A stretch of 58,320 nt of DNA, taken from IMG/VR virus record IMGVR_UViG_3300046791_000324, positions 1-58,320 of that record, one strand, 5' to 3'. This DNA comes from a virus (taxonomy: Duplodnaviria > Caudoviricetes). Positions 13,635 through 48,190 of the stretch are shown piece after piece (the first letter of the stretch is position 1; each line of letters opens with the position of its first letter). Under the pieces are notes generated by a model. It had not been told where the DNA came from. It saw only the letters and a program-made list of their open reading frames with translations, and searched no databases. Both the position numbers and the translations under genes were made by a program.

Positions 13635-13730
13635 TGGGCAGCGGTGGAATCGAACTCACATCGAGTTGGGTAGCTCGTCCCAATCCGACCTGTTGCAACA
13701 GCCGGGCTCCTCGCCCGGTTCAAACTGCCC
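13635..13730 (-). ncRNA. tRNA-like RNA with SelC/allo-tRNA-like layout and a TTGCAA mini-loop
   Basis: Acceptor GGGCAGT/GCTGCCC-A; 6-bp hairpin CCGGGC/GCCCGG; CTG-TTGCAA-CAG; long arm; GTTCGATTC T loop. Confidence 0.65.
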
Positions 13731-13738
13731 GTAAAAGT

Positions 13739-13870
13739 AAGCGGGGTTTTTTGCCTCACTATCGCAGAGCTCTCTCGGGCCGCGGCTCGGCCATCTCCGT
13801 TGGTGCGGGCTCGACGCGGACCCCGCTTGCCGAGGACAAATGCTTCGGCCTGATTGGCGAGCGAACACCA
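13739..13870 (-). ncRNA. Pseudoknotted structured RNA (ncRNA-C)
   Basis: TGGTGT/GCACCA crossed by AAGCGGGG/CCCCGCTT; GCCGA/TCGGC hairpin; U-rich spacers on both sides. Confidence 0.5.
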
Positions 13871-13874
13871 AAAT

Positions 13875-14094
13875 TGGTGGAGATTTCTTTGGTCAGTTTG
13901 AGGCCCCCGGACCCGGGAGTTTTCAGGCTCCCTTCTGTTATCCCGGTTTTTCTGGTCGCCCAGTTTTTCCGGAAATGGCACCTACTCTCAGGTTGTCACG
14001 TCTCCCCTCCGCGTTTGGAGCGCGGTCAGGACTTGTCGCAAGGTGGACGTTCACCGATTTAGCGGCTGTTTAGTCGCCGGCTTTCAGCCCCTCC
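13875..14094 (-). ncRNA. 220-nt multi-hairpin RNA ending in ACCA (ncRNA-B)
   Basis: 5' GGAG pairs with 3' CTCC-A-CCA; at least 7 hairpins; AATTTT spacers. Confidence 0.6.
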
Positions 14095-14099
14095 AAAAT

Positions 14100-14276
14100 T
14101 CGGGCCTACTTCACCAAGGGCCATTGCTCCATTACTGGGCAGCTCCCTTGTATTCTCTCGACAGCGATTGGCGTGTGGCGACGCCTACGTTTTACGCAGC
14201 AACCAAGAGCTTATCATACTCATTTGGCTTCTTGCACCCGCACCGTATCGTGATACCGGATGCCGCCTCGCGCCGA
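14100..14276 (-). ncRNA. 177-nt multi-hairpin RNA (ncRNA-A)
   Basis: TCGG/CCGA closing stem; GCATCCG/CGGGTGC, AGCCAA/TTGGTT, CTGCGT/ACGTAG, GGCGT/ACGCC, CAAGGG/CCCTTG with a CCA-GTAA-TGG tip. Confidence 0.55.
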
Positions 14277-14281
14277 GAAAT

Positions 14282-14391
14282 TGGCGGGTCCAGGGTTTAA
14301 GCCGAAGCATACCCATCTTGGCTCCTGGCAGCCCTCGACCGTAAATCACGAGGGCTGTCACGAGCCGTGTCCTTTCTTAGACGACAGACCC
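14282..14391 (-). ncRNA. tRNA-like RNA with greatly extended anticodon arm and CCA end
   Basis: GGGTCTG/TGGACCC-G-CCA; D arm GTC/GAC; ~16-bp arm GGCTC..CAGCCCTCG/CGAGGGCTG..GAGCC; atypical T arm with a C(TTCG)G tip. Confidence 0.7.
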
Positions 14392-14393
14392 AT

Positions 14394-14465
14394 TGGTTGC
14401 GGAGACAGGAGTCGCACCTGTGGAGTTTTGCTTATGAGACAAAATTGAATCTCATTCTCTCCGCA
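14394..14465 (-). tRNA. Atypical tRNA-Met/Ile2 (CAT) with a minimal D arm
   Basis: TGCGGAG/CTCCGCA-A-CCA; GAAT-GAG-ATTC; TTTTGT-CTCATAA-GCAAAA; ACAGG-TGCGACT-CCTGT. Confidence 0.8.
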
Positions 14466-14466
14466 A

Positions 14467-14478
14467 TTTCAAAGAACA
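14467..14478 (-). promoter_or_regulatory. boxA-like antitermination element TGTTCTTTGAAA
   Basis: Resembles rrn boxA; lies between the promoter and the first RNA of the cluster. Confidence 0.55.
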
Positions 14479-14491
14479 AACCTAACACCAG

Positions 14492-14521
14492 AACATATCA
14501 CGCAAAACGCGCGACCGTCAA
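14492..14521 (-). promoter_or_regulatory. Sigma70-type promoter of the RNA cluster (TTGACG-N18-TATGTT, TG-extended -10)
   Basis: Sequence motif directly upstream of the cluster. Confidence 0.55.
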
Positions 14522-14532
14522 CTCAAGAAAAA

Positions 14533-14715
14533 CTAAATTGGGAGGATGGCTTGCGCGGTCACCGTGTGACCGTATTCCTCGCCGCGCATGTCCGTCTTGT
14601 GCTGCACCACAAACGCGATGCTGCCGGCGGCCACCTGCTTCTGCAACTTAGCAGAAAGCGCGGCGGCAATGAGGTTCAGCAGCTCCGTTTCGTTGATTTC
14701 GACTTTGAGGTTCAC
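14533..14715 (-). CDS. Hypothetical protein
   Basis: GTG start overlapping the upstream TGA; 60 aa. Confidence 0.55.
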   Translation of the reverse strand: MNLKVEINETELLNLIAAALSAKLQKQVAAGSIAFVVQHKTDMRGEEYGHTVTAQAILPI

Positions 14716-14849
14716 TTGGCCTTGCTCCCGGTTTTTTCCCAGTTCTTGGGATGCAGTTTCTTGCCGGCGTTGAGCGCCTTGGCGCGCTTCTGGATTTTCT
14801 TGGACTCCTTCGGGGAGTTGATGAACTTGATGGTGGTGAGGTCGAACAT
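14712..14849 (-). CDS. Small basic hypothetical protein
   Basis: MFDLTTIKFINSPKESKK..., 45 aa, phage-like codon bias. Confidence 0.5.
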   Translation of the reverse strand: MFDLTTIKFINSPKESKKIQKRAKALNAGKKLHPKNWEKTGSKAK

Positions 14850-14863
14850 GTTGGTCTTGGTGG

Positions 14864-15154
14864 CTAGTTGTTTGGGTTGAAAACGGTGAGCGGGCGCGAG
14901 ACCCCTTCGACGCTCTCGCCCCAGGCGAACAGAAAGGCTTCGTGCAGCTTGGCGGTCTCGGCGTTGCGCGCCGCGGCAGCCTTCTTGCCCTCGCCCTGGT
15001 CGGGCGCGGCGAATTGAAAGGGCTCCTCGCAGCCCACGGTGTAAACTGCCCAGGCATCGCAGCCCAGCACGGGGCTCTGGAATACCCCAGAGACGGAGAC
15101 GATGTGTTGTGCTCGGAGGAACATGCCGTTTGGTGCTTCGATGATTTTGCTCAT
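14864..15154 (-). CDS. Hypothetical protein
   Basis: M(SKIIE) start downstream of TTGACA-N17-TACCTT. Confidence 0.6.
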   Translation of the reverse strand: MSKIIEAPNGMFLRAQHIVSVSGVFQSPVLGCDAWAVYTVGCEEPFQFAAPDQGEGKKAAAARNAETAKLHEAFLFAWGESVEGVSRPLTVFNPNN

Positions 15155-15155
15155 A

Positions 15156-15389
15156 TCAGTAAATTTCTTTTCTACGCAGGGGTAAGGTATCACCTGGGTG
15201 CGCGCATGTCAAGTCGCGGATGGTGCGGGCAATCGCTTTCTCCACCAGCTTCTGCACCCAGCCAAAGCCGGCCAAGAGTTCCTCCATCGAGCTGTCGGGG
15301 TGCAACAGGCAGTAGTCCCGGAAAAGCGGGTTGGTCTCGTTCATCTGTTTGAACTCTCGCTCGATTCTACTTGCGGCGTCTTTTCTCAT
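15156..15389 (-). CDS. Hypothetical protein
   Basis: 77-aa ORF in a packed operon. Confidence 0.45.
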   Translation of the reverse strand: MRKDAASRIEREFKQMNETNPLFRDYCLLHPDSSMEELLAGFGWVQKLVEKAIARTIRDLTCAHPGDTLPLRRKEIY

Positions 15390-15765
15390 TGGCTTTGATT
15401 TTCTTGCACAGGTGCGTGAGGTTTGAAAAGGTGTTGCCCGCAGCCATCACGTAGAGGATGCGCGTGTGCAGCTCGAACCATTCGTTGCTGTGCTCCACCG
15501 TGAGCAGGTGCGCCAGCTCGTGTGACATCGTGTCGATGATTTGATAGGGCAGGTCGAGGCCGCCCCACTTGTCTCCGCTGTTCGAGTTCCGGACGCGAAT
15601 GCAAATGTCGCCGTGCTTGTTGCACTTGCCGTAATACCAACATTTCTTTCGGGGCAACGGGGAGACGGAGCGCAGCGGCAGATTGAACATGCGCGCGTGA
15701 TGCTCCACCTGTCCCTTCACGAACTCAAAAAGCAGGCGGTCAGATTTCTTCAGGAGTTTGCTCAT
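15367..15765 (-). CDS. Zincin metallopeptidase (WLM/SprT-like)
   Basis: DTMSHELAHL (HExxH) followed by EH...WF. Confidence 0.75.
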   Translation of the reverse strand: MSKLLKKSDRLLFEFVKGQVEHHARMFNLPLRSVSPLPRKKCWYYGKCNKHGDICIRVRNSNSGDKWGGLDLPYQIIDTMSHELAHLLTVEHSNEWFELHTRILYVMAAGNTFSNLTHLCKKIKANEKRRRK

Positions 15766-15953
15766 GTTTCGATTTTGATGCAGGGCTTTGTTGAGCCGAC
15801 CCCGGCGTAGTAAAAGTATTCTGTGGTGAGCGACACGGTTTCCGCGTTGTCAAAGTTGCTGTCCCAGAGTCCGTCGTTGACCAGGACGGGGACCTTCCCG
15901 TGGCCGGCGGACTGGAGCGTCTGCAATTCGAGAATGAGTTCGTCGAGTGTCAC
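15762..15953 (-). CDS. Hypothetical protein
   Basis: VTLDELILELQ...; GTGA and ATGA overlaps with neighbours. Confidence 0.6.
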   Translation of the reverse strand: MTLDELILELQTLQSAGHGKVPVLVNDGLWDSNFDNAETVSLTTEYFYYAGVGSTKPCIKIET

Positions 15954-16645
15954 TTGCCGCCCTCCTGTCGCCGCTTCATCTCGCGCGTGTAGAGCACGCC
16001 CACCGTGGACGCAAACCAGTAGCGACCGTTCGGCGCGGGGAAGCCCTGGCCCTGCATATACCGCGCGATGTGGCGGAAGGTCCACTTGTCGCCGTTGCGG
16101 CACTTCACAATCGTGGCAATCATTGCGCGCTCAGCGTCCGTCTGCCCGTAGGGCTTCGGGCCCCCACACGGCTCGCCGGTTTCCCGTGCGACCTTGCGCC
16201 GGCCAGCCTGGAGCTTCAACACGAGCTGCGCCTTTTCCCACTGAGCCAGTGCGCCCAGGAGCTGTCGAATCAAAACGCGTGTCGGGTCGGCGTCTGCCAT
16301 CACGAGTTCCTCGCCCGAGTCCGCGGCATAAACCTTGATGCCCTTCTTGCGGCACTCACTCAGGAAAATCTCCTGCACCATCAAGTCGCGTGCGATGCGT
16401 GACGCGTCTTCGACGACGATGGTTTCAATCCCGTGGGCCGCATTCGCGCCGGCCAACGAAAGAATTTCGTGCAGCCCCGCGCGGCTGTCGAACTCCGTGC
16501 CTCCGGACTGTTGGTCCTCGAAGGTCCTCACGATGCGCCAGCCCTTCTTGTCGCAGAAGCCGGAGATTTTGTTTTGCTGGCGGTCGAAGCCGCCGCCGTT
16601 GAGCTGCTCCTTCGTGGAGACGCGGCAGTATGCGAAAACTTTCAT
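15950..16645 (-). CDS. Serine recombinase (resolvase/invertase family)
   Basis: AYCRVSTKEQ (catalytic Ser), SGG...RAGL, DASRIARD, C-terminal GGPKPYG plus HTH. Confidence 0.92.
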   Translation of the reverse strand: MKVFAYCRVSTKEQLNGGGFDRQQNKISGFCDKKGWRIVRTFEDQQSGGTEFDSRAGLHEILSLAGANAAHGIETIVVEDASRIARDLMVQEIFLSECRKKGIKVYAADSGEELVMADADPTRVLIRQLLGALAQWEKAQLVLKLQAGRRKVARETGEPCGGPKPYGQTDAERAMIATIVKCRNGDKWTFRHIARYMQGQGFPAPNGRYWFASTVGVLYTREMKRRQEGGK

Positions 16646-16647
16646 GG

Positions 16648-16980
16648 TTAGAAAACCCAGCGGATGGTGACGCTCGACCAGTCGGTTCCGTGGAAGGGCG
16701 AATCGGCGTTGAAGCCGAGGTCCAAAAAGTGGTGGCGCACCCTCTCGGCAGCTTCGTTCACCGCGTATTCAATCTTCGGCAGCAACACGGAGGCTTCCAA
16801 GCTGTTAGAGGAAACGGACACGCTCTCCTGCGGGTCCTCTTCGTGGAAGGCGCTGTCGATTCTAGTCTCCAGCGCGGCAATCCAGTCAGCCGTGAACTGC
16901 TCCACGCGCCGCTCGAACTTCGCTTTGCGCTCGGCCTCTTGCACGTCGTAGCGCGCTTTCATCTCGGCGTAGGTTTTCAT
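16648..16980 (-). CDS. Hypothetical protein
   Basis: ~110-aa ORF in a packed operon. Confidence 0.6.
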   Translation of the reverse strand: MKTYAEMKARYDVQEAERKAKFERRVEQFTADWIAALETRIDSAFHEEDPQESVSVSSNSLEASVLLPKIEYAVNEAAERVRHHFLDLGFNADSPFHGTDWSSVTIRWVF

Positions 16981-16982
16981 TG

Positions 16983-17591
16983 TCACTTGTTCTGGTCACG
17001 GCTGTCCATGATGACTTGGTGAAGTTTGCGGAGCGTGGCGCGAAGGCGCAAAATCTCGTTGTAGTTGTAGTTGTGGTCTCGCATCGCGCGGACCGACTCC
17101 AGCTCGGAGCGCATCGTGTTGCACTCCGTCGCGGTGACGCGGCTGTTGTCGCGATTGGGGTCCAGATGCTGCGTGCAGATGTGGGCCGCGACCAAACAGC
17201 CGGGGTGTAGCTTGTCGATTGCGCGGAGCAGTTCCGACTGGCGGTTGTTACACGCGGTCAGGCTGGCGATGGTGAGTTCCGACTGCGCGATGGTGTTATA
17301 CTTCTCGGCGTTCAAGGCGCGCAGGTCAGCCACGTCCTTCGTCAGGCCGGCGATGACGTTGGTGTTCTCGTCGCGAATCTTCACGAGCCTCTCAGCCGTG
17401 AGCTGGTGCGCGCCATCCGTGTCGGACACCCGCTTCTCAAGCTCTCGGATTTTGTTGGCCTGCCACTCGTTGGTCTTGGTGTAGCTGGCGTTCTGGCGTT
17501 CGAGAGACTCAATCGTAGTCTTCACGTTGTATGAGGCGATTTCAAATTGCTTGATTGCGTTGTTCATGAGCATGAGTCCGGTGAGGAACAT
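16983..17591 (-). CDS. Coiled-coil hypothetical protein
   Basis: Heptad pattern, 202 aa. Confidence 0.6.
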   Translation of the reverse strand: MFLTGLMLMNNAIKQFEIASYNVKTTIESLERQNASYTKTNEWQANKIRELEKRVSDTDGAHQLTAERLVKIRDENTNVIAGLTKDVADLRALNAEKYNTIAQSELTIASLTACNNRQSELLRAIDKLHPGCLVAAHICTQHLDPNRDNSRVTATECNTMRSELESVRAMRDHNYNYNEILRLRATLRKLHQVIMDSRDQNK

Positions 17592-17924
17592 TCAGTCGTT
17601 GCGTTTGAGGAGTGACGTGGGGACGTGCAGGACGGTGACGTGCTTGCCGCTCTCCCCGATGAAAAGCACCTTGCTATCGTCAAAATAAAGCGGGTTGACT
17701 TCGAGGATGACTCCAACGGCTTCGTGGAATAGGCAGGCCTTGATGATGACCCGGTCGCCCTTCTTGAGCGCCGCGGGCGCGGGCTTCTCGACGGGCACCA
17801 CGACGGCGTGGATTTCTTTGGGCGGCGCGTTGAGCAGGGAGCAGCCGTGGAGTATTCCGAAGGCGACACCCATGCTCAGGGCGAAGGTTGCGAGCAGTGC
17901 GAATTTGGTTTTGTTGATGTTCAT
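17592..17924 (-). CDS. Putative lipoprotein with a KOW-like motif
   Basis: Signal peptide ending LHGC; LKKGDRVIIK; preceded by TTGACA...TAGACT. Confidence 0.55.
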   Translation of the reverse strand: MNINKTKFALLATFALSMGVAFGILHGCSLLNAPPKEIHAVVVPVEKPAPAALKKGDRVIIKACLFHEAVGVILEVNPLYFDDSKVLFIGESGKHVTVLHVPTSLLKRND

Positions 17925-18300
17925 TACGGTGGTCAGTCTATCACAGGTTGGCGGTTTGTCAAATAGCAGATGGCGAAAGCGAGGCCGATGCAAAAGGGCG
18001 AGCAGCCGGTGGCCGCCAGGAAGCTAATCACGGCGAGCGTGCTCAAGAGGGTCTTGAGGGCCGGGCTCATCGGCTTGCAGAGTTCGTGTGCCGGCGGGGC
18101 CGGGGGCGCGGGGCGGCTCAGTCCAAAACTTGAGTTCATAATTTGTTGCCTTTGCGGCTGTAGATTTTCTTGCTCTGCCGGACGCGGGTCACGGGTTTCA
18201 GTGCGCCCCAGCTCCGGCGGACCTTGATGTCTTTCTTCTTCACACCCCAATGTCGCACAGCCCGGGAAAAAGTCAAGGCCCACGTCATGCGGGCCCTGCT

Positions 18301-18406
18301 TGGATGCGACCGGGAGGGATTTGAACCCTTGGGTGCTCCTTCACGGACCTACCCAGCGCCTGCAACTTGCCAACCCGGGTCCCCCCGGAGCCAGCTCAGC
18401 CGGTCA
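18301..18406 (-). ncRNA. Stand-alone tRNA-like RNA with the same layout as 13635-13730
   Basis: TGACCGG/CCGGTCG acceptor, hairpin, GTTGCA linker, TGGGT/ACCCA arm, AGGG-TTCAAAT-CCCT T arm; TTGACG...TACTTT upstream. Confidence 0.6.
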
Positions 18407-18800
18407 GGGGAAAAGTAGTCCCGCGGGGTCCCGGGCGTCAAGTCAAGCGGGCCAGTAGAACTCCGGTAGTGCGGGCGCGTAGTCATGCGGACAGGTCGCG
18501 AGTAGGCAGTTTTTTCATGGCGCGGCAACCGCTGAGCGGGGGACCCCCCGCGGAATGCCCCCCTTGGGGGTGGCCCTCGCGCTTTAACGCTAACGCGTGA
18601 GAATCGCGCATCGGCAAAGGCTGCCGACCGCTGCTGTCCTCAGTCTGGACTGTCCGCCTGCCCCTAAGTCGTTGCGTCGCAAGGTCAGCGCGTCATCGGG
18701 CCACACGGATGCGGCATTCTCACGCGTAAGCAGCTCTTGTGCCACGACATATCGTGGGCGCGACACGGTTCGTCCCACTTCTGGGACGCTCGACCTTCGC

Positions 18801-19463
18801 TCAGTCGTCGGCAGAATCTGCCGGGTCTAGGGGATTTGCTGAGGTCTTGTCCCGTGCTTGTGCGGCGTTGCGCCTCTGCACTTCTTCATTCGCCTCAGCG
18901 ATAAGCTGTTGCGTCACGGGCTCAGGCTGTGCGTCTGGATTGGACAGGCTCGCGATGATGGCTGCGTGCAAGTCGTTGCTGCTCGGGCCCTTCTGTCCGT
19001 TGCCGCCTTCGGCCTCGCATCGTTCGGTGATTGTGTCACCGAGGGCTGCGTAAGTCATTCGATGACAGGTCTCAGCGCACGCTGCCATGTCCAGCAAAAA
19101 CTTGGCCGACAACTGCATTCCGCCGTCTCGGGTCCGGACGCAGGCGCGGCTCAGTAGTTCCTCGTTGGTCATGGCCTGGACTTCGGTCAACAGCCTGTTC
19201 ACCTGCTGCCGCAAAACCTGGGCCTGGACAAAGCAGAGAGCACGGTTGGTTGCCCTCTCGAAGTCGCCCGGCTTGCCGCTCTTGGACATCAGCGACACGC
19301 GCCTGATTTTGTCCTGCCATCCTTCAGCCTCGGCCAGCTCCTGAATCTGTTTCGGTTCAAGGTCCAGAGCGTGGGCGGTGCGCTCCACATCTCCGACGAA
19401 GGTCATGTAAGCCAGAAAGGCTTGGCTCACGTCCACCTTGTTCTTGTCCAGTGCTCGGCTCAT
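18801..19463 (-). CDS. Putative terminase small subunit
   Basis: N-terminal HTH-like GDVERTAHALDLEPKQIQELAEAEGW then a helical region; start taken at M(SRALD). Confidence 0.5.
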   Translation of the reverse strand: MSRALDKNKVDVSQAFLAYMTFVGDVERTAHALDLEPKQIQELAEAEGWQDKIRRVSLMSKSGKPGDFERATNRALCFVQAQVLRQQVNRLLTEVQAMTNEELLSRACVRTRDGGMQLSAKFLLDMAACAETCHRMTYAALGDTITERCEAEGGNGQKGPSSNDLHAAIIASLSNPDAQPEPVTQQLIAEANEEVQRRNAAQARDKTSANPLDPADSADD

Positions 19464-19654: not shown

Positions 19655-19745
19655 TCTGAACAAGTGCGCCAGCCGGCGCTATGTCAAAAGGAAAAGTGCC
19701 CACAGCCCGCCCGAGTTCCGTTTGACCTGATGTCCTTGTGCCATC

Positions 19746-21694: not shown

Positions 21695-21715
21695 GCCTAA
21701 CAACATCGCGAAACT

Positions 21716-23208: not shown

Positions 23209-23214
23209 AGGGGC

Positions 23215-39933: not shown

Positions 39934-39982
39934 GCGCCCCTCAGTTGACAACACGCGATAACCCGAGATACTCTTCTCCACT

Positions 39983-42262
39983 GTGCTAAGATACCTCAAG
40001 AACCTTACGTCCACGCAAACCTTCGAGGGTGAGCCGTGGAAATTCGACAAACTCTCCTCCGTTCCTCAAAGCTGCATCGACGACAAGGCTGCCCGGACCG
40101 CCTGGGCAAACCTCTCCGGGACCGATTACATGTTCTACTCCGGCTTCGTCGCCGTCAACGAGAACATGCGCGTGAGCGAACGTGGGCTAAAGGACAACGA
40201 CAACCGACCCTGGGAAATGCGCGCGTTCGTCGGCGACTACGATGCCAAGTTCACTGAGCAGGAAGTCGATAGCGCAATCGCTCGGATGGACATCAAGCCA
40301 AACTGGGTGGAGCGTTCTCTCTCCGGCAACTGGCGCTTGGTCTGGATTTTCGCCGTGCCCATCGCCCTCTCCTCTCGCAACTTCGCGGTTCACCTTCTCA
40401 AGCAGCTTCACGAGTTCCTTCCGATTCTCCAGTTGAGCAACCTCGACGTTGGCTACCTGGAACCGTCTCGCTACTACACTGCCGGCTCTCAGTGGCGGCA
40501 GATTGAGCCTGACCCCATCCCGCACGCGACCGTCTGCGGCTGGCTGTTGAAGGTCTGCCGGACCTACGCGTGGAAAGACAACGAGCCCGGCGTGACCATC
40601 CCCGCGAAGATTGTCGCCGACCGCTTCCGCGAGCTGTCCGACAAGTTCCCCCGCTTCAAGGAGTGGGAAGGCGACTTCGACTTCGGTCTGCAAGGCCCGT
40701 CCTTCTGGATTGAAGGCTCCACGTCGAAGGCGTCCGCGATGGTGTGCGAGACCGGCATGAAAACTTTTGCGGCGCACGCGGGCGGCAAGGGCTGGTGGAC
40801 ATGGCCCGAGCTGCTCGGAGCTGACTGGGTCAAACAGTTCGAGCAGAACCGAACGGGGAACGCGGTCAAGGACATCTACTTCGACGGCAAAGATTACGGC
40901 GTCAAGCGGGAGTCCGGGCGCTGGGATATTCTGAACAAGGACAACGTCATCAACGAGCTGGTGGTGATGCGCGGCCTCACGCGTGACATCAGCAAGAAGA
41001 AGGGCGAGACCTTTTCCGAAGTCGAAGGCGCGATTGCTTTCATTCACGGAGAGCAGCGGGTCAAGGGCATGAAGTCCTTCGCCTTCTGGCCCAAGGGCAA
41101 AATCCCTTTCAACAGCGAGTGGTATATCAACACGCACAACGTCGATGCCATGTCGCCGGCTGACGGCAAAGCGGTGTGGGGCCCCGAGGGACAGTTCCCC
41201 TGGATTTCCGAATACTACGACAACTTTTTCACGACGCCCGACCAGCTCCCTTTCTACTTGAGCTGGGCCAGCTACTTCTACAAGGGCTGCTACGAGCGCG
41301 ACCTGCAACTCGGTCACGCAATCTACATCGCGGGGCCCGTGGCCTGCGGCAAGACTTTCGGCTGCCGGAAAATCCTCGGCGCGATTGTCGGAGGATTCTC
41401 GGAAGCCGCGGCACACCTGCTCGGCGAGACCACCTTCAACTCTCAGCTTTTCGACCACGCTCTGCACGTCGTTGACGACACTGCGGTCACCGAGAACGAG
41501 AGGATGCTCCGCCGGTTCAGCGAGAACGTCAAGAAGAACACGGCGAACAACGAGCGCGAGTGCAACGAAAAGTTCCGCCTGGGTGGCGTCGTGGGCAGCC
41601 GGGCCCGGACGCACATCACCAGCAACCTCGACGCTGACGCCGTCCTGCATCCCGACCTCGACGCCAGCATGGCAGACAAGGTCATGATGTTCATGGCGCA
41701 GTCGCCCAAGAAAACTTTTCCGCCGGCCAAAGAGCTTGACGCCATCCTCGCGCGCGAGCTTCCGTGGTTCTGCCGCTTCCTGTTTGACTGGGTGGTCCCG
41801 CCCCAGTGCGTCGGCACGTCGCAGGATGAAGCCCGCTTCGGCGGCATCAAGGCCTATCACAACCCCGAGATGGTGACGAGCGCGCAGCGGTCCAGCAAGA
41901 CCTCGGCTCTCGCTCAGGTCCTCATCGTGTGGATGCGCGAGTATTTCACGAAGACCGAGCCCGAAGCCAACAACTGGGTGGGCTGCGCTCTCGACCTCTA
42001 TCAACAGTTCCAATCCGTGGCCGGCATCTCGGAGGTCCTCCGGCAAATGCAATTCCCCAAATTTAACCGCGACCTGCACACTCTCAGCAAGGGCAAACTC
42101 TTCAAAATCGAAGAGAGGCCCGGGGTCGCAGGCGTTCACACATACTCAATCGACCGTTCGACTCACTACCCCAAGAACCTTCGGGTTCTGGACGTGCCTG
42201 AGCAAAGGACTGACAGCCGATTCCAGAAAAACCCGACGAATGAACAACGAGAACAGCAATAA
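39983..42262 (+). CDS. Primase-helicase (prim-pol-like N-terminus plus SF3/DUF5906-like ATPase)
   Basis: GDYD...SLSGNWRLVW; GPVACGKT, VVDD, TSN; class-II motif at 39945-39975. Confidence 0.8.
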   Translation: MLRYLKNLTSTQTFEGEPWKFDKLSSVPQSCIDDKAARTAWANLSGTDYMFYSGFVAVNENMRVSERGLKDNDNRPWEMRAFVGDYDAKFTEQEVDSAIARMDIKPNWVERSLSGNWRLVWIFAVPIALSSRNFAVHLLKQLHEFLPILQLSNLDVGYLEPSRYYTAGSQWRQIEPDPIPHATVCGWLLKVCRTYAWKDNEPGVTIPAKIVADRFRELSDKFPRFKEWEGDFDFGLQGPSFWIEGSTSKASAMVCETGMKTFAAHAGGKGWWTWPELLGADWVKQFEQNRTGNAVKDIYFDGKDYGVKRESGRWDILNKDNVINELVVMRGLTRDISKKKGETFSEVEGAIAFIHGEQRVKGMKSFAFWPKGKIPFNSEWYINTHNVDAMSPADGKAVWGPEGQFPWISEYYDNFFTTPDQLPFYLSWASYFYKGCYERDLQLGHAIYIAGPVACGKTFGCRKILGAIVGGFSEAAAHLLGETTFNSQLFDHALHVVDDTAVTENERMLRRFSENVKKNTANNERECNEKFRLGGVVGSRARTHITSNLDADAVLHPDLDASMADKVMMFMAQSPKKTFPPAKELDAILARELPWFCRFLFDWVVPPQCVGTSQDEARFGGIKAYHNPEMVTSAQRSSKTSALAQVLIVWMREYFTKTEPEANNWVGCALDLYQQFQSVAGISEVLRQMQFPKFNRDLHTLSKGKLFKIEERPGVAGVHTYSIDRSTHYPKNLRVLDVPEQRTDSRFQKNPTNEQREQQ

Positions 42263-42938
42263 CTACTACCGCGCGAATGAAGACCTGCGGTTCAAACTCA
42301 CCACACCCGAAGAAGAGGCCAAACTTTTCCTGGCGGCGAAAAAGGGCGACGCAAACGCTCGTGAGTTCCTTATCAAAAACCATCTGCTCTATGCAGCAAG
42401 ATTTGCTCGCCGCGCAAATCGTGGCCGGCTTCCAGATGATGAAGTAATCTCCGCCGTGAACGCCGCCCTGATGAACGCCATCGACCGCTTCGACCCCGCC
42501 TGGGGCAATAGGTTCACGCGTTACCTCACGCCTTTTCTGCGCGGCGCAATCGCCGGCCTGTGGAAGGAGCGCAACGTGGTGACGCCGTCGTCGCACTCTG
42601 ACAAGTTCCCGACGTTCACGCCTTACAAGGAGCACGACGACGAGCATGGGAACGACGCCGCGCGCATCATGCCCAAGGCAGTGCAACAGGCCTGCGTCGA
42701 GACGGCCCCGCCGACTGACGAAATCGTTTCTCAGAAAGAGGAACTAGGCCTCAACCTCGCGATGCTCAAGAAGTGCAAGTGCAAGCTGACGCGCCCCGAG
42801 CGGGAGCTGCTGACGCTCATCTACGACGTGGGCCAGAGCATGGCAGACATCGCCCGAGACCGCGGGGTGAGCCGACAAGCGGTCCACGCGGCACATGGGC
42901 AGATTATTACCAAGCTGAGAAAGGGATTTAGGAAGTGA
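42240..42938 (+). CDS. Phage RNA polymerase sigma factor (sigma70 family)
   Basis: LTTPEEEAKL...GDANAREFLIKNHL (regions 1.2/2.1), AIDRFDPAWGNRFTRY (2.3), SMADIARDRGVSRQAV (4.2). Confidence 0.9.
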   Translation: MNNENSNNYYRANEDLRFKLTTPEEEAKLFLAAKKGDANAREFLIKNHLLYAARFARRANRGRLPDDEVISAVNAALMNAIDRFDPAWGNRFTRYLTPFLRGAIAGLWKERNVVTPSSHSDKFPTFTPYKEHDDEHGNDAARIMPKAVQQACVETAPPTDEIVSQKEELGLNLAMLKKCKCKLTRPERELLTLIYDVGQSMADIARDRGVSRQAVHAAHGQIITKLRKGFRK

Positions 42939-43107
42939 AAACTAAATGGCGCATTGATTGGGCTAAAATATCTGAGAGGGAAGACGGAAGCTGCTGCATC
43001 GGGATTGGGTATTGTGGCCCGATTGATGCGGTCTTCTGTCTATGGGACTCTCTCGAGATTTTCTTATTCCGGCGGGTTCTTCGAATCCACCGACATCGTC
43101 TTTTTAA

Positions 43108-43635
43108 ATGAAAACCATCCTCGCCTTGGACCTCGGCACCACCACGGGCTGGGCCTATCGCTCTCGCTCCGGCGGCATTACCGCGGGCGCGTGGCTCTTG
43201 CAGGACGAGAAGGCCCGCAAGCTGGCCGCCAAGGCGCGCCTGGACCGCCGGCTGGACGCCCGCATCCCCACACTTTACGGGAAGCTGCGCGCCATCTGGG
43301 CCGACAACATCGCCGACGGGACGGCCAACAACCCGGTTGACTTCCTGGTGTTCGAGGACGTGGAGTTTTCCCAATACACCTTGCAGACGCAACTGTGGTC
43401 AAGCCTCCGCGCCGCCCTCTGGCTTTTCGCGCATCGCCACGGCATCATCACCGACTGCATCAACGTCAAGACCCTCAAGAAGTTGGCCACGGGCTCCGGC
43501 GGGGCCGACAAAGATTTCATGATTCGGACCGCGACGAAGCTGTTCCCGACGGTCACCATAGTTGACGACAACGCAGCGGATGCCTTACATCTACTACAAT
43601 GGGCAATGACAATCACAAAGAGAAGCGCCAAGTAG
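43108..43635 (+). CDS. ruvC: RuvC-like Holliday junction resolvase
   Basis: ILALDLGTTTGWA, VFED, LKKLATGSGGADK, DDNAADA. Confidence 0.85.
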   Translation: MKTILALDLGTTTGWAYRSRSGGITAGAWLLQDEKARKLAAKARLDRRLDARIPTLYGKLRAIWADNIADGTANNPVDFLVFEDVEFSQYTLQTQLWSSLRAALWLFAHRHGIITDCINVKTLKKLATGSGGADKDFMIRTATKLFPTVTIVDDNAADALHLLQWAMTITKRSAK

Positions 43636-44205
43636 GAGCCGCTGTGGTTCCGACTCGCGAGGCTCTCACCCGCACGCAGCTCGACACGCTGCAAACCGTC
43701 GTGAACACGCTGAGCCCTTTCATCCTGGGGCACCGCAGCATCTTCATGATGTCGGAGGAAGAGACGCCCCGGAAGATTGACGGTGGCAGCCGCAGTGACC
43801 TTCGCCAACGTGTGCGGACGCATCGACGCGATTCTCGCGGACCAAACGCGCTGGGACACGTCGAAGCACGACGAGCTATATGGCTCGATTCAAGCAGTGC
43901 AGAACGCGCAGGTTGAATATCTGAAAGCGCAGACGGACGCCGCCAAGAGCCCGGCCTACCAGCTCCGGCCAATCATCGCCAACGACGGCTTCCAGTTCAT
44001 CTGTTACCACGGCGACATCACCAAGTCCGGCTACGCCATCATCGGCTGCGGACAAACGCCGGCAGAGGCTCTCGCCGCTTTCGACGCAGCTTTTCACAAG
44101 ACCCCGCAGCAACAAGTAATCATGGCATCGCAGGCCGCCGCCGACGAAGCCCCAAAACCAAAACGGAAACCCAAAACAGAACCGCCCTCGGGCAGCTTAA
44201 TATGA
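43599..44205 (+). pseudogene. Hypothetical gene split by a frameshift near 43780
   Basis: Coding-like ORFs 43599-43916 and 43777-44205 join in frame if one ACGGTGGC 8-mer is restored. Confidence 0.5.
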
Positions 44206-45413
44206 CCTGGACAAAGCAAGACATCCAACAATTCCGAACCGCCGTGATGTCCGGCATGACCGACAAGGCTCTCGCGCAGACCTTCGGCGTCAGCGAGCCC
44301 GCCATCCGCCGCGCCCGTCAGCGGTTCGCCCCGGAGAGCGTGAAGACCCGCGTCGCTGCCGACAAGAAACACGGCTTCGACACCGTCTATTGCGACGCTG
44401 TGTCCAACCCGACGGGGGAGAACACTGCCACGCAAGTCAACCCGGCCTGGATTGACGCAGAGGTCACATCAGAGACCGTCGGGCCCCTCGGGCAAACGGG
44501 CCCCGTCGGAGGTCCCGGTGACCCTGGCGCTCCTGGTCCGTGTCCCCTGATGGAAGCGGCCAAGGAAATCCCGACCGAGTTCGGCAAAATCCCGCTCGAC
44601 ATTTTCGACGGAGATGCCTGGACGAAAATCGGTCTCGTGTCAGACACACACTTGGCCTGCCGCGAGGAACGCCTCGACGCCCTGCACGCGCAGTATGACC
44701 TGTTCGTTCGTGAAGGCGTGAAGGACGTTTTCCACGCCGGCAACATCGTGGACGGCTACGTTCCGCGCATCAACGGCGCGAGCGTCATCGAGACCAGCAT
44801 CGACGGGCAGGCAATGTATTGCGCCCGCCAATATCCGCAACGGGACGGCATCACCACGCACTTCATCACGGGCGACGACCACGAGGGCTGGTGGCAGAAA
44901 GAGGGCTTCAACTTCGGCGCTTACTTGCAGATGGTCTGCGAGCGCATGGGTCGCACGGACATGAAGTATATCGGCCACGTCGAAGCCGACGTTGAGCTGA
45001 CCTGCGGAGAGTTCGTCAACCGCATGAAGATTCAGCATCCGGGCGGCGGCAGTGCCTACGCCAGGAGCTACAAGGGCCAGAAGATGGTCGAGAGCTTTCA
45101 GGGCGGAGAGAAGCCGGCCATTCTGGTGCAGGGCCACTACCACGTCAGCGGCTACAGCTTCGACCGCAACGTCCACATCATCGGGATGCCTGGGTTCAAG
45201 GACCAAGACATGTTCACCCGCAAGCAACATCTCCGCTGCGAAATCGGCGGCGTGATTCTCGAATTCAAAATGTCGAGCACGACGGGAGCCATCACGCGCA
45301 TCCGCCCAGAGTTCAACATGTTTTTCGACCGAGGCTTCTACAAGAAGTTCCTTCCGTCGGACGGCGTGCTCCGCGGTCAACCGAAATCCATCATCACGGG
45401 GAACGGACAATGA
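44202..45413 (+). CDS. Calcineurin-like metallophosphoesterase with N-terminal HTH
   Basis: SDTH, HAGNIVDG, TGDDHE, QHP, QGHYH; short Gly-X-Y linker. Confidence 0.85.
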   Translation: MTWTKQDIQQFRTAVMSGMTDKALAQTFGVSEPAIRRARQRFAPESVKTRVAADKKHGFDTVYCDAVSNPTGENTATQVNPAWIDAEVTSETVGPLGQTGPVGGPGDPGAPGPCPLMEAAKEIPTEFGKIPLDIFDGDAWTKIGLVSDTHLACREERLDALHAQYDLFVREGVKDVFHAGNIVDGYVPRINGASVIETSIDGQAMYCARQYPQRDGITTHFITGDDHEGWWQKEGFNFGAYLQMVCERMGRTDMKYIGHVEADVELTCGEFVNRMKIQHPGGGSAYARSYKGQKMVESFQGGEKPAILVQGHYHVSGYSFDRNVHIIGMPGFKDQDMFTRKQHLRCEIGGVILEFKMSSTTGAITRIRPEFNMFFDRGFYKKFLPSDGVLRGQPKSIITGNGQ

Positions 45414-45760
45414 GCAACAGAACCTGGACACTGACCGAGGCTCTCGCCCTCGTCCGAGACCTTGAGGAACACTTCTCAACTGTGGCGGACGGAGAACGGT
45501 TCCACTTCGCCCTCGGTGGCTCGGTGCTGCACAAGGGGGAGTCCAAGAAGGACCTCGACATCTTCGTGTATCCCCGCAAGAAGCCCGACGCGGGCTGGGG
45601 CTACACGTATGCTGCGATGGCAATCGGGGAGTATCTCAGCCTCGCGCTGAGACGCTGCACCAGAAACAAAGAAGAGGAGCCCCAGTATCGCGACGCCAAG
45701 AACGTGTGCTACGCCTACACCAGCGCCGGCAAACGCATAGACTTCTTTTTCCTCTCGTGA
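45410..45760 (+). CDS. Minimal nucleotidyltransferase (Pol-beta superfamily)
   Basis: LGGSVL...KDLDIFV...RIDFF. Confidence 0.7.
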   Translation: MSNRTWTLTEALALVRDLEEHFSTVADGERFHFALGGSVLHKGESKKDLDIFVYPRKKPDAGWGYTYAAMAIGEYLSLALRRCTRNKEEEPQYRDAKNVCYAYTSAGKRIDFFFLS

Positions 45761-45777
45761 CCGTCATCGGCTACAAA

Positions 45778-45909
45778 ATGAAAAACGTCCTGTGCGGATG
45801 TTGCAAGCAGAACATCTGGTGGGACAGGGACGCGCGGTTCTGGTGCGAGAACAAAGCGTGCAAAGAATTCAAACTCGTCGAATACAACCCGAAATTCAAA
45901 AACCCATGA
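45778..45909 (+). CDS. Small zinc-finger protein
   Basis: CGCC...WD...WCENKAC. Confidence 0.45.
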   Translation: MKNVLCGCCKQNIWWDRDARFWCENKACKEFKLVEYNPKFKNP

Positions 45910-46289
45910 AACCACTAAACTCAGACGGCAAGCCGGCCAACGAGCTGCACGAAGGCAGTTGGATTGGCGTGGACCTCGACGGCACGCTCGCGCACTACGA
46001 CGGCTGGAAGGGCGTCTCTCATATCGGCGAGCCGATTCCCGCGATGGTTGAGCGGGTGAAGCGTTGGTGCGCCGAGGGAAAAGAGGTTCGCATCTTCACG
46101 GCGCGCGCCTACAACGACCTGTCAGCCCTCAAGTGGATTTATGCTTGGTGCGAAAAGCATCTTGGCCAGAGGCTGCGAGTGACCTGCGAGAAGGACCTGA
46201 AAATGTATGAGCTGTGGGACGACCGTTCTGTGTGCGTCGAACGCAACACGGGCCGAGTCCTCGGCTGCAACCCAACGGACACACTATGA
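45906..46289 (+). CDS. HAD-family phosphatase (PNKP-phosphatase/nucleotidase-like)
   Basis: WIGVDLDGTLA, IFTAR, K...LWDDR. Confidence 0.85.
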   Translation: MKPLNSDGKPANELHEGSWIGVDLDGTLAHYDGWKGVSHIGEPIPAMVERVKRWCAEGKEVRIFTARAYNDLSALKWIYAWCEKHLGQRLRVTCEKDLKMYELWDDRSVCVERNTGRVLGCNPTDTL

Positions 46290-46633
46290 ACTACGCCGAC
46301 GACACACGCCAGATTCACGTCATCCAATACGGAGCTGACGGCGGAGTTGAGCACACGGTCACGCAGGCCTTCTTGACCATGAAGGCCCGCGAGTTCTACC
46401 GCAAGGTGTGCTTCGCGCAACGGGAGAAGGGCGGAGAGAGGCCCCGCGTGTGCATCGCCGGCTTCATGGATTTTCTCTGGCTCCGCTCCTACTGCGCCGA
46501 CTACTTGGGCAACGCTCCGATGTTCGACACGGGCGTGCAGTCGATGCCAGAAAATTTCCCAAAACACTTCACCTGGAGAGGCGTCCTCATCATCGAGGCC
46601 CTCGAAAACGAAACCGGATACACCTTCGCATGA
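46286..46633 (+). CDS. Hypothetical protein
   Basis: ATGA overlaps at both ends. Confidence 0.55.
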   Translation: MNYADDTRQIHVIQYGADGGVEHTVTQAFLTMKAREFYRKVCFAQREKGGERPRVCIAGFMDFLWLRSYCADYLGNAPMFDTGVQSMPENFPKHFTWRGVLIIEALENETGYTFA

Positions 46634-47022
46634 GCGACGTAGCCTCACTCCTGGGCAACGTCAGAGAGATGCCCATTCCGACGGGGCAACGCCTCGACGT
46701 TTTCGTGTGCCCCGGCGTCTCGCAGGAGGCGCTGGACCGCTGGGTGACGCAGGGCGGCAAGACCACGTTCCACACCGACGAGTGCAGCGGCAACATCGCC
46801 GACTGGGGCGTGGACATGGCCAAGAAGTGCGGAATTGCTCTGTTCACCATCTGGTCGCAGCGGGGCGTGCGAGACGGCTACCTCGACGGCAAAACGTCTG
46901 AACTGCTCCAACCCTTCTACGACCGCGCGGGCGAAGAGGCGAACTGTTTCCAGTGGCAGCCCATCGAGAAAAACTTTGTGCGGCGCGGACCCGACTGGTT
47001 CAACGAACGGAAGACCGCTTGA
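46630..47022 (+). CDS. Hypothetical protein
   Basis: ATGA overlap with the upstream gene. Confidence 0.55.
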   Translation: MSDVASLLGNVREMPIPTGQRLDVFVCPGVSQEALDRWVTQGGKTTFHTDECSGNIADWGVDMAKKCGIALFTIWSQRGVRDGYLDGKTSELLQPFYDRAGEEANCFQWQPIEKNFVRRGPDWFNERKTA

Positions 47023-47063
47023 TTTGACGGGGCGCGTCGCCCCGTGCTAACCTACGAACACTG

Positions 47064-47561
47064 ATGAACAAAACCATCAAAACCCTATTGGCGCTGGCAG
47101 GACTGCTCGCGGTAATTAACACCGCTTCGGCGGGAGTCAAGAAAATCGGCACGCTCAACGGCTTCGATGTCTATCGCATCAAGAACATGGGCCTCTTCTG
47201 CCCGAGCACGACCACGACCGTTTTGGCGGACCCGAAGAAACCCGGGACCATCGAAGGCGTCGTGTCGAGTGCCTCAGGCACGTCGGTCCTCGGCAGTGTG
47301 GCGGCTCCTGCGGCTACCGCGGCGAGCGCGTATCTGCACAAGCCCGACACGACCACGGTGAGCCAATCCGGCGGCGGAGCCTCGGCCACGTCGAACGCTG
47401 ACGCGAGCGCGAAGTCCAAAGCGACCGGCGGGGCTGGCGGAGTGGGCAACGGCGGCGCAGGCGGCACTGGCAACGGTGGCGCGGGCGGAAACGGCACGGC
47501 CAATGGCGGCGGACAGTTTGTTCCCCCGGGCCACATCAACAACCCGTCGAGCAACAACTAA
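47064..47561 (+). CDS. Exported Gly/Ser-rich protein with its own promoter and terminator
   Basis: Signal peptide ending ASA; GGAGG repeats; TTGACG-N18-TAACCT upstream. Confidence 0.75.
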   Translation: MNKTIKTLLALAGLLAVINTASAGVKKIGTLNGFDVYRIKNMGLFCPSTTTTVLADPKKPGTIEGVVSSASGTSVLGSVAAPAATAASAYLHKPDTTTVSQSGGGASATSNADASAKSKATGGAGGVGNGGAGGTGNGGAGGNGTANGGGQFVPPGHINNPSSNN

Positions 47562-47593
47562 ATCTGGCCTCTCCAAGGACGGGTTCAAAGGCA

Positions 47594-47627
47594 GGGCGGG
47601 CACGGATTGCTCGCCCCTTTTTCTTTT
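47594..47627 (+). terminator. Rho-independent terminator
   Basis: GGGCGGGCA-CGGAT-TGCTCGCCC plus T tract. Confidence 0.75.
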
Positions 47628-47752
47628 CATGAGCCAATACCCGATGACCATCGCAGCGCAATGCGCGCGGGCTCGGCTGCGGCGCAAGCTGGCTGTCTTG
47701 ATGCTGTTCCTGGTCCTCGTCGGGCCGATTGCCGAAGATGACGCGGATGCAT

Positions 47753-47780
47753 TTGACAAGTTGCCGGGGTGTGGTAAAAT
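47753..47780 (+). promoter_or_regulatory. Near-consensus sigma70 promoter: TTGACA, 16-nt spacer ending TGG, TAAAAT
   Basis: 6 nt upstream of the first RNA of cluster 2. Confidence 0.8.
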
Positions 47781-47786
47781 GTCTGC

Positions 47787-47974
47787 GGTTCGGTAGCACA
47801 AACGGAATAGTGCAGTCGCCACTTGAGTGTGGACCTCACGAGTAGGCAGGAGATGACCACGGAGTAATCAACCGGGCTGGCGTCCCTCATTGAAAGTGAC
47901 AGGGTGAGCCTGGAGGGAGTGATTCGCCCGAAAAGCAAACCCTGATGCCGGTTCGAGCCCGGCCTGAACCACCA
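47787..47974 (+). ncRNA. 188-nt tRNA-scaffolded RNA with a 132-nt structured insert
   Basis: GGTTCGG/CTGAACC-A-CCA; D arm GCAC/GTGC; T arm GCCGG-TTCGAGC-CCGGC; no canonical anticodon arm. Confidence 0.8.
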
Positions 47975-47979
47975 ATTTT

Positions 47980-48084
47980 GTCGGTGACGGTCCGCAGTGG
48001 GGTTGACCGGGACGGGACGGCGAGTCAACGCGCCTGTCAGCTCCCGCCCGCTGCGCCCGGGTTCGTTTCCCGGGGCTGACACCA
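47980..48084 (+). ncRNA. tRNA-like RNA (6-bp acceptor, 6-bp T stem) with a pseudoknot-capable core
   Basis: GTCGGT/GCTGAC-A-CCA; CCCGGG-TTCGTTT-CCCGGG; CGCAGTGGG/CCCGCTGCG; GTTGAC/GTCAAC. Confidence 0.7.
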
Positions 48085-48091
48085 ATTTTTC

Positions 48092-48190
48092 GGGAGGGTG
48101 GCGAAACTGGTAAACGCGTCGCTCCACAAGGGCGGCTGCCGGATATTGGCCATAAGCCGGTGTGTGCGGGTTCGACCCCCGCCCCTCCCA
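48092..48190 (+). tRNA. Type-II (Leu-like body) tRNA with an aberrant anticodon loop CC-ACA-AG
   Basis: GGGAGGG/CCCTCCC-A; GCG-AAACTGGTAAA-CGC; TCGCT/GGCGG; long variable arm; GCGGG-TTCGACC-CCCGC. Confidence 0.7.

Follow-up and report, generated by a model that had tools for sequence, protein, structure and literature searches.

The transfer RNA (tRNA) genes of phages are usually seen as aids to codon usage and, lately, as replacements for tRNAs that have been destroyed by host defence. The tRNA cluster of phage T4 includes two accessory stable RNAs (species 1 and 2, rnaC and rnaD), which are co-transcribed with the phage tRNAs, are released by host tRNA-processing enzymes, have tRNA-like ends and have no known function. 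The TMERs of murine gammaherpesvirus 68 are a eukaryotic case, with polymerase III promoters, processing by tRNase Z and microRNA hairpins as cargo. The present report concerns three loci of tRNA-shaped or CCA-ended non-coding RNAs in a virus of the class Caudoviricetes (IMG/VR record IMGVR_UViG_3300046791_000324), the whole record of which, 58,320 bases at an estimated completeness of 81%, is referred to as the window. Two further systems bear comparison: a passage in PMC11455837 describes a T5 phage tRNA that neutralises the PARIS defence, and one in PMC7824862 describes Y RNAs with a tRNA-like domain in some jumbo phages.

The window holds ten such RNA units, consisting of one tRNA of decoding type, six tRNA-shaped shells and three other structured RNAs. 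They are part of a clade-wide modular RNA-operon system in which a tRNA frame, or just a CCA-ended helix, recurs on non-decoding RNAs. The best reading, to which a probability of roughly 0.6 is given, is that these are RNA loci of a phage, probably of Verrucomicrobia, whose polycistronic precursors would be cut by host tRNA-processing enzymes into stable tRNA mimics.

The larger of the two operons is a non-coding transcription unit on the minus strand (13632-14521), with a sigma-70-like promoter and a 26-nucleotide (nt) leader followed by six units, U1 to U6, whose layout was obtained by combining a reading of the sequence with predicted folds. Promoter, leader and U1 type are shared with a complete 72.6-kb phage (G002), which was reached via a neighbouring protein and continues with different RNA units. 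The features of the operon are as follows.

14492..14521, minus strand: promoter, TTGACG-18-TATGTT (promoter scan; homologous promoter in G002 and other loci).
14466..14491, minus strand: leader of 26 nt with a conserved UCUUUGAAA motif before U1; the same motif opens related operons.
14394..14465, minus strand: U1, tRNA-Met(CAU)-type, with encoded CCA (ARAGORN; Rfam tRNA, 31.2 bits).
14282..14391, minus strand: U2 (Z family), cloverleaf shell with a GCCA end (cloverleaf as minimum free energy (MFE) fold; alignment of six sequences).
14100..14279, minus strand: U3, structured RNA of about 180 nt (predicted fold; no Rfam match and no nhmmer homologue).
13875..14094, minus strand: U4, multi-hairpin RNA of 220 nt with an ACCA end (fold with a 5-base-pair (bp) terminal stem; no nhmmer homologue).
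13733..13869, minus strand: U5 (K family), non-tRNA structured RNA (covariance model and 14-sequence alignment).
13632..13730, minus strand: U6, tRNA-shaped shell (fold; weak match to the tRNA-Sec model at 13637-13729, 18.8 bits, E 1.1).

U1 has a D arm with a 4-bp stem and a loop of only 3 nt, and an anticodon loop of 7 nt (CU-CAU-AA). U2 combines a 7-bp acceptor stem and a conserved D arm with a 40-nt hairpin at the anticodon position and a UUCG-capped hairpin at the T position; going by its D-arm pattern, it may descend from tRNA-Glu. No tRNA-Glu comparable to U2 was found in the phage tRNA arrays compared, and a related U2-family unit had no blastn match in E. coli genomes. U3 consists of a long helix closing its 5' and 3' ends and then a 3' hairpin, without CCA, and an AUUUU spacer follows it. 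In U4, a hairpin loop (ACGUC) and a GACGU further downstream are complementary to each other, and a unit of a related operon (L135) carries both motifs. U5 has two invariant elements, a long-range helix of 8 bp (AAGCGGGG/CCCCGCUU) and a GCCG/CGGC stem, together with a covarying hairpin and an ACUUUU end. U6 has a 7-bp acceptor stem, a degenerate T arm (UUCGAUU), a 6-bp hairpin replacing the D arm, a long extra arm and a 3-bp stem with the hexaloop UUGCAA, and its 3' end reads AACC and then a U run, with no encoded CCA; units with a UUGCAA loop like that of U6 also occur in the related loci L131, L133, L139, L141 and L142. The spacers of the operon are, in order, AU, AUUUC, AUUUU, AUUUU and ACUUUUAC.

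Downstream of this operon lies the gene of a small protein of 63 amino acids, with its own promoter-like sequence after the last unit. The frame of this protein is open upstream through U6, U5 and part of U4, so that it appears as a listed open reading frame (ORF) of 195 amino acids (window 13394-13981, minus strand, GTG start). The upstream part is taken as a probable chance open frame in G+C-rich DNA, because it is not conserved as a protein in relatives, which have other RNA modules there.

The second operon, a non-coding transcription unit on the plus strand (47753-48190), also has a sigma-70-like promoter, and carries three units.

47753..47780, plus strand: promoter, TTGACA-16-TAAAAT with upstream TG (promoter scan, 11 of 12 matches).
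47787..47974, plus strand: P1, tRNA-shaped shell with an ACCA end (predicted fold; no Rfam tRNA match at E up to 10).
47980..48084, plus strand: P2, acceptor-like stem and T arm (UUCGUUU) with an ACCA end (predicted fold; no Rfam match).
48092..48190, plus strand: P3, tRNA-like, with no encoded CCA (Rfam tRNA, 43 bits; fold).

The promoter sits inside the 3' end of a small conserved ORF, in an arrangement that has its homologue in G002, and the first base of P1 lies 7 nt past the −10 hexamer. P1 keeps a 7-bp acceptor stem, a D arm with GG and a T arm (UUCGAGC), with about 125 nt in place of the anticodon and variable region. In P2 the acceptor-like stem is of 5-6 bp and one long irregular hairpin replaces the other arms. 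P3 has canonical acceptor (7 bp), D and T arms, a long extra arm and 36 nt inserted in the anticodon region; its anticodon loop is abnormal, with C at position 33 or, in the MFE fold, only 5 nt, and ARAGORN detects it in intron mode only. The spacers are AUUUU before P2 and AUUUUUC before P3.

The third locus (18274-18441, minus strand) is a solo non-coding unit bracketed by a promoter-like sequence and a terminator, with a further conserved stretch upstream.

18412..18441, minus strand: promoter-like sequence before S1, TTGACG-N18-TACTTT (read by eye; not flagged by the consensus scan).
18299..18405, minus strand: S1, solo tRNA-shaped RNA (fold; weak match to the tRNA-Sec model at 18306-18383, 14.4 bits, E 7.6).
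About 18264..18298, minus strand: intrinsic terminator after S1, a 10-bp stem and a U run (terminator scan).
18430..18800, minus strand: S0, conserved non-coding stretch upstream of the S1 promoter (nhmmer).

S1 starts 7 nt past the −10 hexamer and has a 6-7-bp acceptor stem, a T arm (UUCAAAU), remodelled other arms and the 3' tail GCAUCCA; it was not found at the equivalent place in G002 or G004. S0 occupies about 350 nt between two minus-strand genes and is kept in four phages, the nhmmer matches being L166:1403-1645 (E 3e-19), L167:1435-1654 (6e-13) and L168:1502-1580 (0.01). It contains G/C-rich hairpins and a conserved segment ending ...GCCGCGCCAUGAAAAA.UGCCU.CUCG, with no conserved ORF and no Rfam match, and probably represents either one more structured RNA or a long leader.

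An earlier sequence-only reading of the window had announced about ten units in three loci, each behind a promoter-like sequence. Ten were indeed counted, with borders within a few bases of those it gave; two of the promoters were recovered by the promoter scan and that of the solo unit was read by eye. The solo RNA, which it had placed at 18301-18406, was confirmed as a unit at 18299-18405 with its strand corrected to minus, and the short AU-rich spacers that it described are present between units as AUUUU-like sequences. An encoded CCA with a discriminator base is found in five of the ten units (U1, U2, U4, P1 and P2), as had been claimed, each with a 5-7-bp stem joining the ends. The claim of seven units with an acceptor stem and T arm is reduced to six with a T-loop-like heptamer (U1, U6, P1, P2, P3 and S1), and seven is reached only by counting the tetraloop hairpin of U2. 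The normal anticodon loop of 7 nt with U33 is confined, again as claimed, to U1 and is missing from the other nine units, where the loop in the anticodon region measures 5 or 6 nt or 40-125 nt stand in place of the arm. The shells (U2, U6, P1, P2, P3 and S1) thus have an acceptor stem and mostly a T arm with no normal anticodon loop. The non-tRNA structured RNAs U3, U4 and U5 are not strictly tRNA-scaffolded.

Standard tRNA detection sees little of this. With default settings, ARAGORN calls one tRNA (U1) and no transfer-messenger RNA (tmRNA) in the window, and at a lowered threshold (80%) its 138 tRNA and 38 tmRNA calls over the whole window amount to noise. A gathering-level Rfam scan of the window returns one tRNA (P3, 48092-48190). 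Against the RF00005 tRNA gathering threshold of 29 bits, only U1 (31.2 bits) and P3 (43 bits) score high enough and eight of the ten units fall below; by the acceptor features of that family (about 7 bp, discriminator and CCA), U1, U2 and P1 have 7 bp and N-CCA. An E-value-level search of the three loci adds to U1 two weak tRNA-Sec matches (U6 and S1) and noise, and U2, U3, U4, U5, P1 and P2 have no Rfam match at E up to 10. GOLLD, ROOL and HEARO are likewise without a match, in the window at gathering level and in the three loci at E up to 10. No Y RNA match was found in any Rfam search, and no TROVE domain among 54 ORFs of the window, which represents 81% of the genome.

The encoded ends and spacers recur more often than composition would give. 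There are 13 copies of CCAATTT in the window where 6.25 would be expected, a count reached by none of 100 shuffles, and four of these 13 sites are unit ends in the correct orientation. In the 12.6 kb of 14 related operons, CCA followed by three A/T occurs 49 times (3.9 per kb; reached by 0 of 1000 shuffles), against background rates of 0.94 per kb for the DNA flanking the operons and 0.65-0.89 per kb for the remainder of the window. Folding strength is uneven: z-scores are strong for U2 (−4.52, with 0 of 200 shuffles as good), U6 (−2.70) and U3 (−2.06, 4 of 200) and weak for P3 (−1.8), P2 (−1.60), S1 (−1.39), U4 (−1.02), P1 (−0.58) and U5 (−0.06).

Relatives were gathered by four motif scans, three of viral contigs and one of metagenome contigs, the latter returning 11 stretches, of which four were new true loci, four were copies of viral contigs and three were unrelated. 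For the minus-strand operon, 14 further versions were found in uncultured phages, one of them partial. All 14 are at the same genomic position, with variable upstream genes on one side and a conserved small protein or sulfotransferase-like gene on the other. In nhmmer comparison with the related loci, clear relatives exist for U1, for U5 and for the 5' part of U2, and U6 has one weak relative that aligns poorly. In the related operons, ARAGORN and Rfam call only some of the units, as Met, Phe, Arg and Cys-like tRNAs; non-tRNA Rfam families, GOLLD, ROOL and HEARO among them, gave no match in 15 related loci with E cut-offs of 1 or 5. Against 50,697 phage records, neither RNA operon had a blastn match.

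In an alignment of ten U1 sequences, which includes phages with ordinary large tRNA arrays, 10 of 21 pairs are compensatory and the 4-bp D stem with its 3-nt loop is invariant. The six aligned U2 sequences give a cloverleaf consensus of 20 pairs, nine of them compensatory, with a constant D arm and with covarying stems at the acceptor, anticodon and T positions. A U5 covariance model of eight sequences detects a single copy per source in 14 sources and nothing in six control loci. In the 14-sequence alignment, which was fitted to the model so that its figures lean towards the model's structure, 98.2% of cells are paired (37-49% with slid partners), and the covariation score is 0.154 against 0.073, with none of 500 shuffles reaching the observed score; two helices (12 pairs) are invariant and one hairpin has four of its five pairs changed on both sides. 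For six U6-type units, a multiple alignment yielded no consensus structure. MAFFT mis-registered the window-L141 pair, and the compensatory changes visible by eye in that pair are accordingly left out of the evidence. The U1, U2 and U5 alignments support structural selection on these three families.

The units behave as cassettes, related phages holding the same families in other orders and combinations. A U5-type unit comes before the U2-type unit in L137, L132 and L142, and after it in the window. In a close relative from sequencing run X3, 77 other letters replace U1, with the joint running from 14393 to 14463, which are essentially the U1 borders. The plus-strand locus of G002 holds a tRNA-Lys(UUU)-like unit (42.7 bits) and another CCA-ended RNA, and that of G003 holds no cargo. 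The U2 family includes both an L152 unit that reaches 49 bits as a tRNA and the window unit, which scores nothing, and some U6-type relatives have, as read from the sequence, a 7-nt CUUGCAA loop. By the same kind of reading, at least nine further recurring unit types in the related operons are absent from the window. In size and modularity the family goes far beyond what the window by itself displays.

Among the modules absent from the window, a conserved three-way-junction RNA (GAGACGGGG...CGAAAGGACGCAUGGCCCCGCACCAG) recurs in 14 viral stretches. Others include an H-type pseudoknot (GCAG-ACGGCUC-CUGC-GUAAUGA-GAGCCGU) and a minihelix ending GGNCC-GCGAUAG-GGUCC-ACCA. Such modules were seen in L131-L152 (for example L134:980-1075, L137 and L141), and none matches Rfam.

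The proposal of the sequence-only reading that non-decoding RNAs are carried on tRNA frames is borne out by these comparisons: the units are not ordinary tRNAs overlooked by the detection programs, nor simply decaying pseudogenes, the remodelled forms being conserved and covarying across diverged phages. Its concern that every unit might prove to be a known Rfam family is answered by the two names that Rfam supplies (U1 and P3), both as tRNA. On covariation the outcome is divided, with the U1, U2 and U5 families covarying and no relatives found, by nhmmer against the related loci, for U3, U4, P1, P2, P3 and S1.

An exact search for the U1-type pattern in a species-genome collection gave four stretches, all in two metagenome-assembled genomes (MAGs) of Verrucomicrobia. 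In one of them (Verrucomicrobiae; L176, L177 and L179), the U1-type tRNA has three copies, each immediately after the stop codon of one and the same phage-like gene, an arrangement that looks like prophage ends or an attachment-site duplication at this tRNA. One of these mini-D-arm tRNA-Met copies lies at a truncated duplicate of that gene end. In the second MAG (L178), the U1-type tRNA is next to a tRNA array on a contig of 73 kb. A type-A RNase P RNA (217 and 222 bits) and RNase E/G are encoded in both MAGs; the RNase P RNA sequence examined (L181) shows conserved P4 strands and, by eye, GGU in the putative L15 region. The small downstream protein has no relative in 185,579 species genomes. 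By this indirect route, the host is probably a member of the Verrucomicrobia.

Type-A RNase P binds the RCCA end of its substrates and prefers U at position −1, and RNase E can cut right after CCA. The units of the window are laid out with an acceptor-like closing stem, one discriminator base and CCA, a U-rich spacer and mostly U at position −1. This arrangement fits processing by RNase P and RNase E-type enzymes; published work describes RNase E making mature CCA ends (PMC5291269) and RCCA-dependent cleavage of non-tRNA substrates by RNase P (PMC12710915). In the proposed scheme, the three loci would be early-type RNA genes driven by sigma-70 promoters, with the two operons transcribed as polycistronic precursors that the host tRNA-processing machinery would turn into about nine small stable RNAs. 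RNase P would cut on the 5' side of each acceptor-like closing stem bearing a discriminator and CCA, an RNase E/G-type enzyme would cut in the AUUUU or ACUUUU spacers, and exonucleases would trim to the CCA or to the terminal helix. S1 would be its own promoter-to-terminator unit, and 5' processing may be unnecessary for P1 and S1, whose first bases are at predicted transcription starts.

In a test of base pairing between units, none of 55 pairs was significant. The longest complementary runs are P1-S0 (11 nt, reached by 6 of 200 shuffles), U2-U5 (10 nt, 5 of 200), U4-S1 (9 nt, 17 of 200) and S1-S0 (9 nt, 43 of 200). The P1-S0 run joins window 47834-47846 (plus strand) and 18493-18505 (minus strand), the latter within the conserved S0 segment, and the U2-U5 run joins the T-position hairpin of U2 at 14303-14312 and the first U5 hairpin at about 13838-13847, both on the minus strand.

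The 54 window ORFs were also scanned against Pfam or PHROGs. Annotations include DNA polymerase A, helicases, a PD-(D/E)XK nuclease, a serine recombinase, a sigma-70-family factor (ORF 42240-42938, with Sigma70 regions 2 and 4), an RNA-ligase-family protein and a Mom-like protein. A polyvalent protein of more than 1,786 amino acids (52771-58320, minus strand) extends past the contig end and has ADP-ribosyltransferase, two GNAT acetyltransferase and DUF7178 domains. Two recurrent promoter-like motifs precede protein genes at 13600-13625, 18412-18441 and 18255-18290 on the minus strand and at 48205-48240 on the plus strand, and the same two motifs also occur in the relatives L131, L137, L139, L157 and L167. 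The first reads TTGAC(A/T)-N17-19 and then a CTTCTT-like or TACTTT-like element, and the second is CUGUGCGACAUU-like and lies about 10 nt upstream of start codons. Both motifs may be recognised by the sigma factor that the phage itself encodes.

As to function, the most likely role of the shells, by inference from their form and context, is to act in trans as tRNA mimics that would occupy or divert host proteins binding tRNA ends or bodies. The targets of such mimicry could be anticodon nucleases and CCA-end-modifying enzymes, with the shells themselves escaping translation. This role is favoured because the CCA-ended helix is the feature common to otherwise unrelated units, because the parts removed are the parts needed for decoding, and because the RNA-ligase-family gene and the atypical tRNA-Lys(UUU)-like unit of G002 signal conflict over tRNA. 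Several observations weigh against the overall account of processed tRNA mimics. The six units without relatives have no covariation support, only five of the ten are CCA-ended, and, of the nine units folded, six fall short of a z-score of −2. In the X3 relative, a U4 hairpin shows, among the 13 substitutions listed (with 61 further differences), one compensatory pair and two broken ones. No RNA run is listed among the public runs, no decoy target was identified and no defence-related protein was linked to the loci.

The other explanations are taken in falling order of probability. The first goes further in the direction of mimicry, and holds the operons to be a shuffling arsenal of RNA counter-defence cassettes, each a tRNA shell or CCA-ended helix that baits a different host effector; it is regarded as possible, at well below even odds. 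The effectors would be anticodon nucleases, CCA-modifying toxins and tRNA-binding sensors, and RNA cassettes would be exchanged within the clade like the anti-defence protein genes of other phages, with the invariant U5 (K) RNA as a shared core component, possibly a catalytic or processing helper.

That the loci are instead a decaying array of formerly ordinary tRNA genes, most of them now drifting as functionless pseudogenes, is unlikely. The span of the families from near-canonical to heavily altered forms, seen in the 49-bit L152 unit and the unscored window unit of the U2 family, would be expected of decay, as would the six units without relatives found and the hypervariable U4 hairpin of the X3 relative. 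However, the altered forms are conserved across diverged phages with pairing kept by compensatory changes, the replacement arms are stable tetraloop-capped helices rather than eroded stems, and promoters, spacers and CCA ends are retained; the non-tRNA unit U5, with its 12 invariant pairs, is a single-copy member of all 14 operons in which it was found.

It is rather improbable that the units are unusual tRNAs that still decode, being charged and used by the ribosome for recoding, for frameshifting or to replace nuclease-cut host tRNAs. The anticodon loop of U1 is normal, related operons hold ARAGORN-called Phe, Arg, Met and Cys tRNAs, and the CUUGCAA loop of some U6-type relatives and the tRNA-Lys(UUU)-like unit of G002 point the same way. 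This sits poorly with the nine window units that lack a 7-nt U33 loop, their loops being of 5-6 nt or their arm replaced by 40-125 nt, and with the single tRNA seen by ARAGORN and the two seen by Rfam.

A role in cis, either as hot spots of recombination or integration in the guise of tRNA genes or as long structured leaders of downstream genes, is very unlikely. Cassettes are exchanged at the loci, the gene of a serine recombinase is only 1.5 kb distant and the downstream small protein gene is conserved; yet that gene has its own promoter-like sequence past the last unit, S1 is flanked by a promoter-like sequence and a terminator, and covariation keeps the pairing of RNA rather than the sequence of DNA.

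The least credible proposal, a phage ribonucleoprotein or ribozyme set with, for example, P1 as a tmRNA-like RNA, a Y-RNA-like repair partner or U5 as a minimal RNase P-like core, can appeal to the tmRNA-like topology of P1 (a tRNA-like domain with a large insert), to a likeness of U5 to P4 of the Verrucomicrobia RNase P RNA by eye only and to the phage RNA-ligase-family protein, and founders on the missing tmRNA call, on the lack, at E up to 10, of any match to RNase P, Y RNA or another family and on the absence of Ro/TROVE and RtcB among the ORFs scanned.

Two candidate assignments within that proposal were rejected individually. P1 and P2 as tmRNA have no ARAGORN call and score 10.9 bits with the permuted tmRNA model against a cut-off of 47, and P1 has U3-A70 instead of G3-U70. 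U5 as bacterial RNase P RNA has no RF00010 or RF00011 match at E up to 10, and its helix lacks the P4 bulge. Viewed by eye, the U5 helix, with an A-rich strand before its 3' side and an A after it, is reminiscent of the P4 strands in the RNase P RNA from a MAG (AAGUCCGA ... ACAGAACUCGGCUUA; L181:1501-1860, minus strand).

Under the preferred reading of host-processed tRNA mimics, this phage keeps one decoding tRNA and invests two strong promoters in about nine non-decoding RNAs that are tRNA-like or tRNA-ended. Should processing of the units into stable RNAs hold true, nature would here offer a case of the tRNA frame serving as a general small-RNA chassis in bacteria, and the units would be a source of more than 12 unnamed structured RNA families, three of which (the U1, U2 and U5 types) have covariation support. 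If the units are decoys, they would represent an RNA-based branch of phage counter-defence and would offer compact probes for tRNA-targeting immune systems.

No description of such operons was found in the literature. Sections of PMC10690425 report a catalogue of 8,495 candidate structured RNAs from IMG/VR, tRNA-like candidates among them; it may contain some of these modules, and a search of part of its supplementary files for four contig numbers gave no match. With the Rfam tRNA family (RF00005), the shells share acceptor, mostly T and partly D arms; U1 and P3 are above its threshold and nine of the ten units have no normal anticodon loop. The Y RNAs resemble the present units as phage-encoded non-decoding RNAs with a tRNA-like module, tied to RNA repair. 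They differ in partnering with Ro/TROVE, of which no member was found among the 54 ORFs scanned, and no unit matches a Y RNA in Rfam. The TMERs share the use of a viral tRNA-like module as an expression and processing handle for a linked structure, with CCA carried or added and no decoding, and have no homology to the phage units. Phage tRNAs of the anti-PARIS type are likewise tRNA-type RNAs in a conflict over host tRNA, to which the tRNA-Lys(UUU)-like unit at the plus-strand locus of G002 may be likened, but they still decode, whereas most units here cannot, the anticodon loop being missing or mis-sized. Species 1 and 2 of T4 are similar in being small stable RNAs of no known function clustered with phage tRNAs and having tRNA-like ends; here, by comparison, the accessory RNAs outnumber tRNAs nine to one, fall into many families, are exchanged as cassettes from phage to phage and include shells derived from tRNAs. 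None of the T4 RNAs, anti-defence tRNAs, TMERs or Y RNAs is a family to which the units can be assigned, and the operons are best filed with phage tRNA clusters carrying accessory RNAs, as a variant of them.

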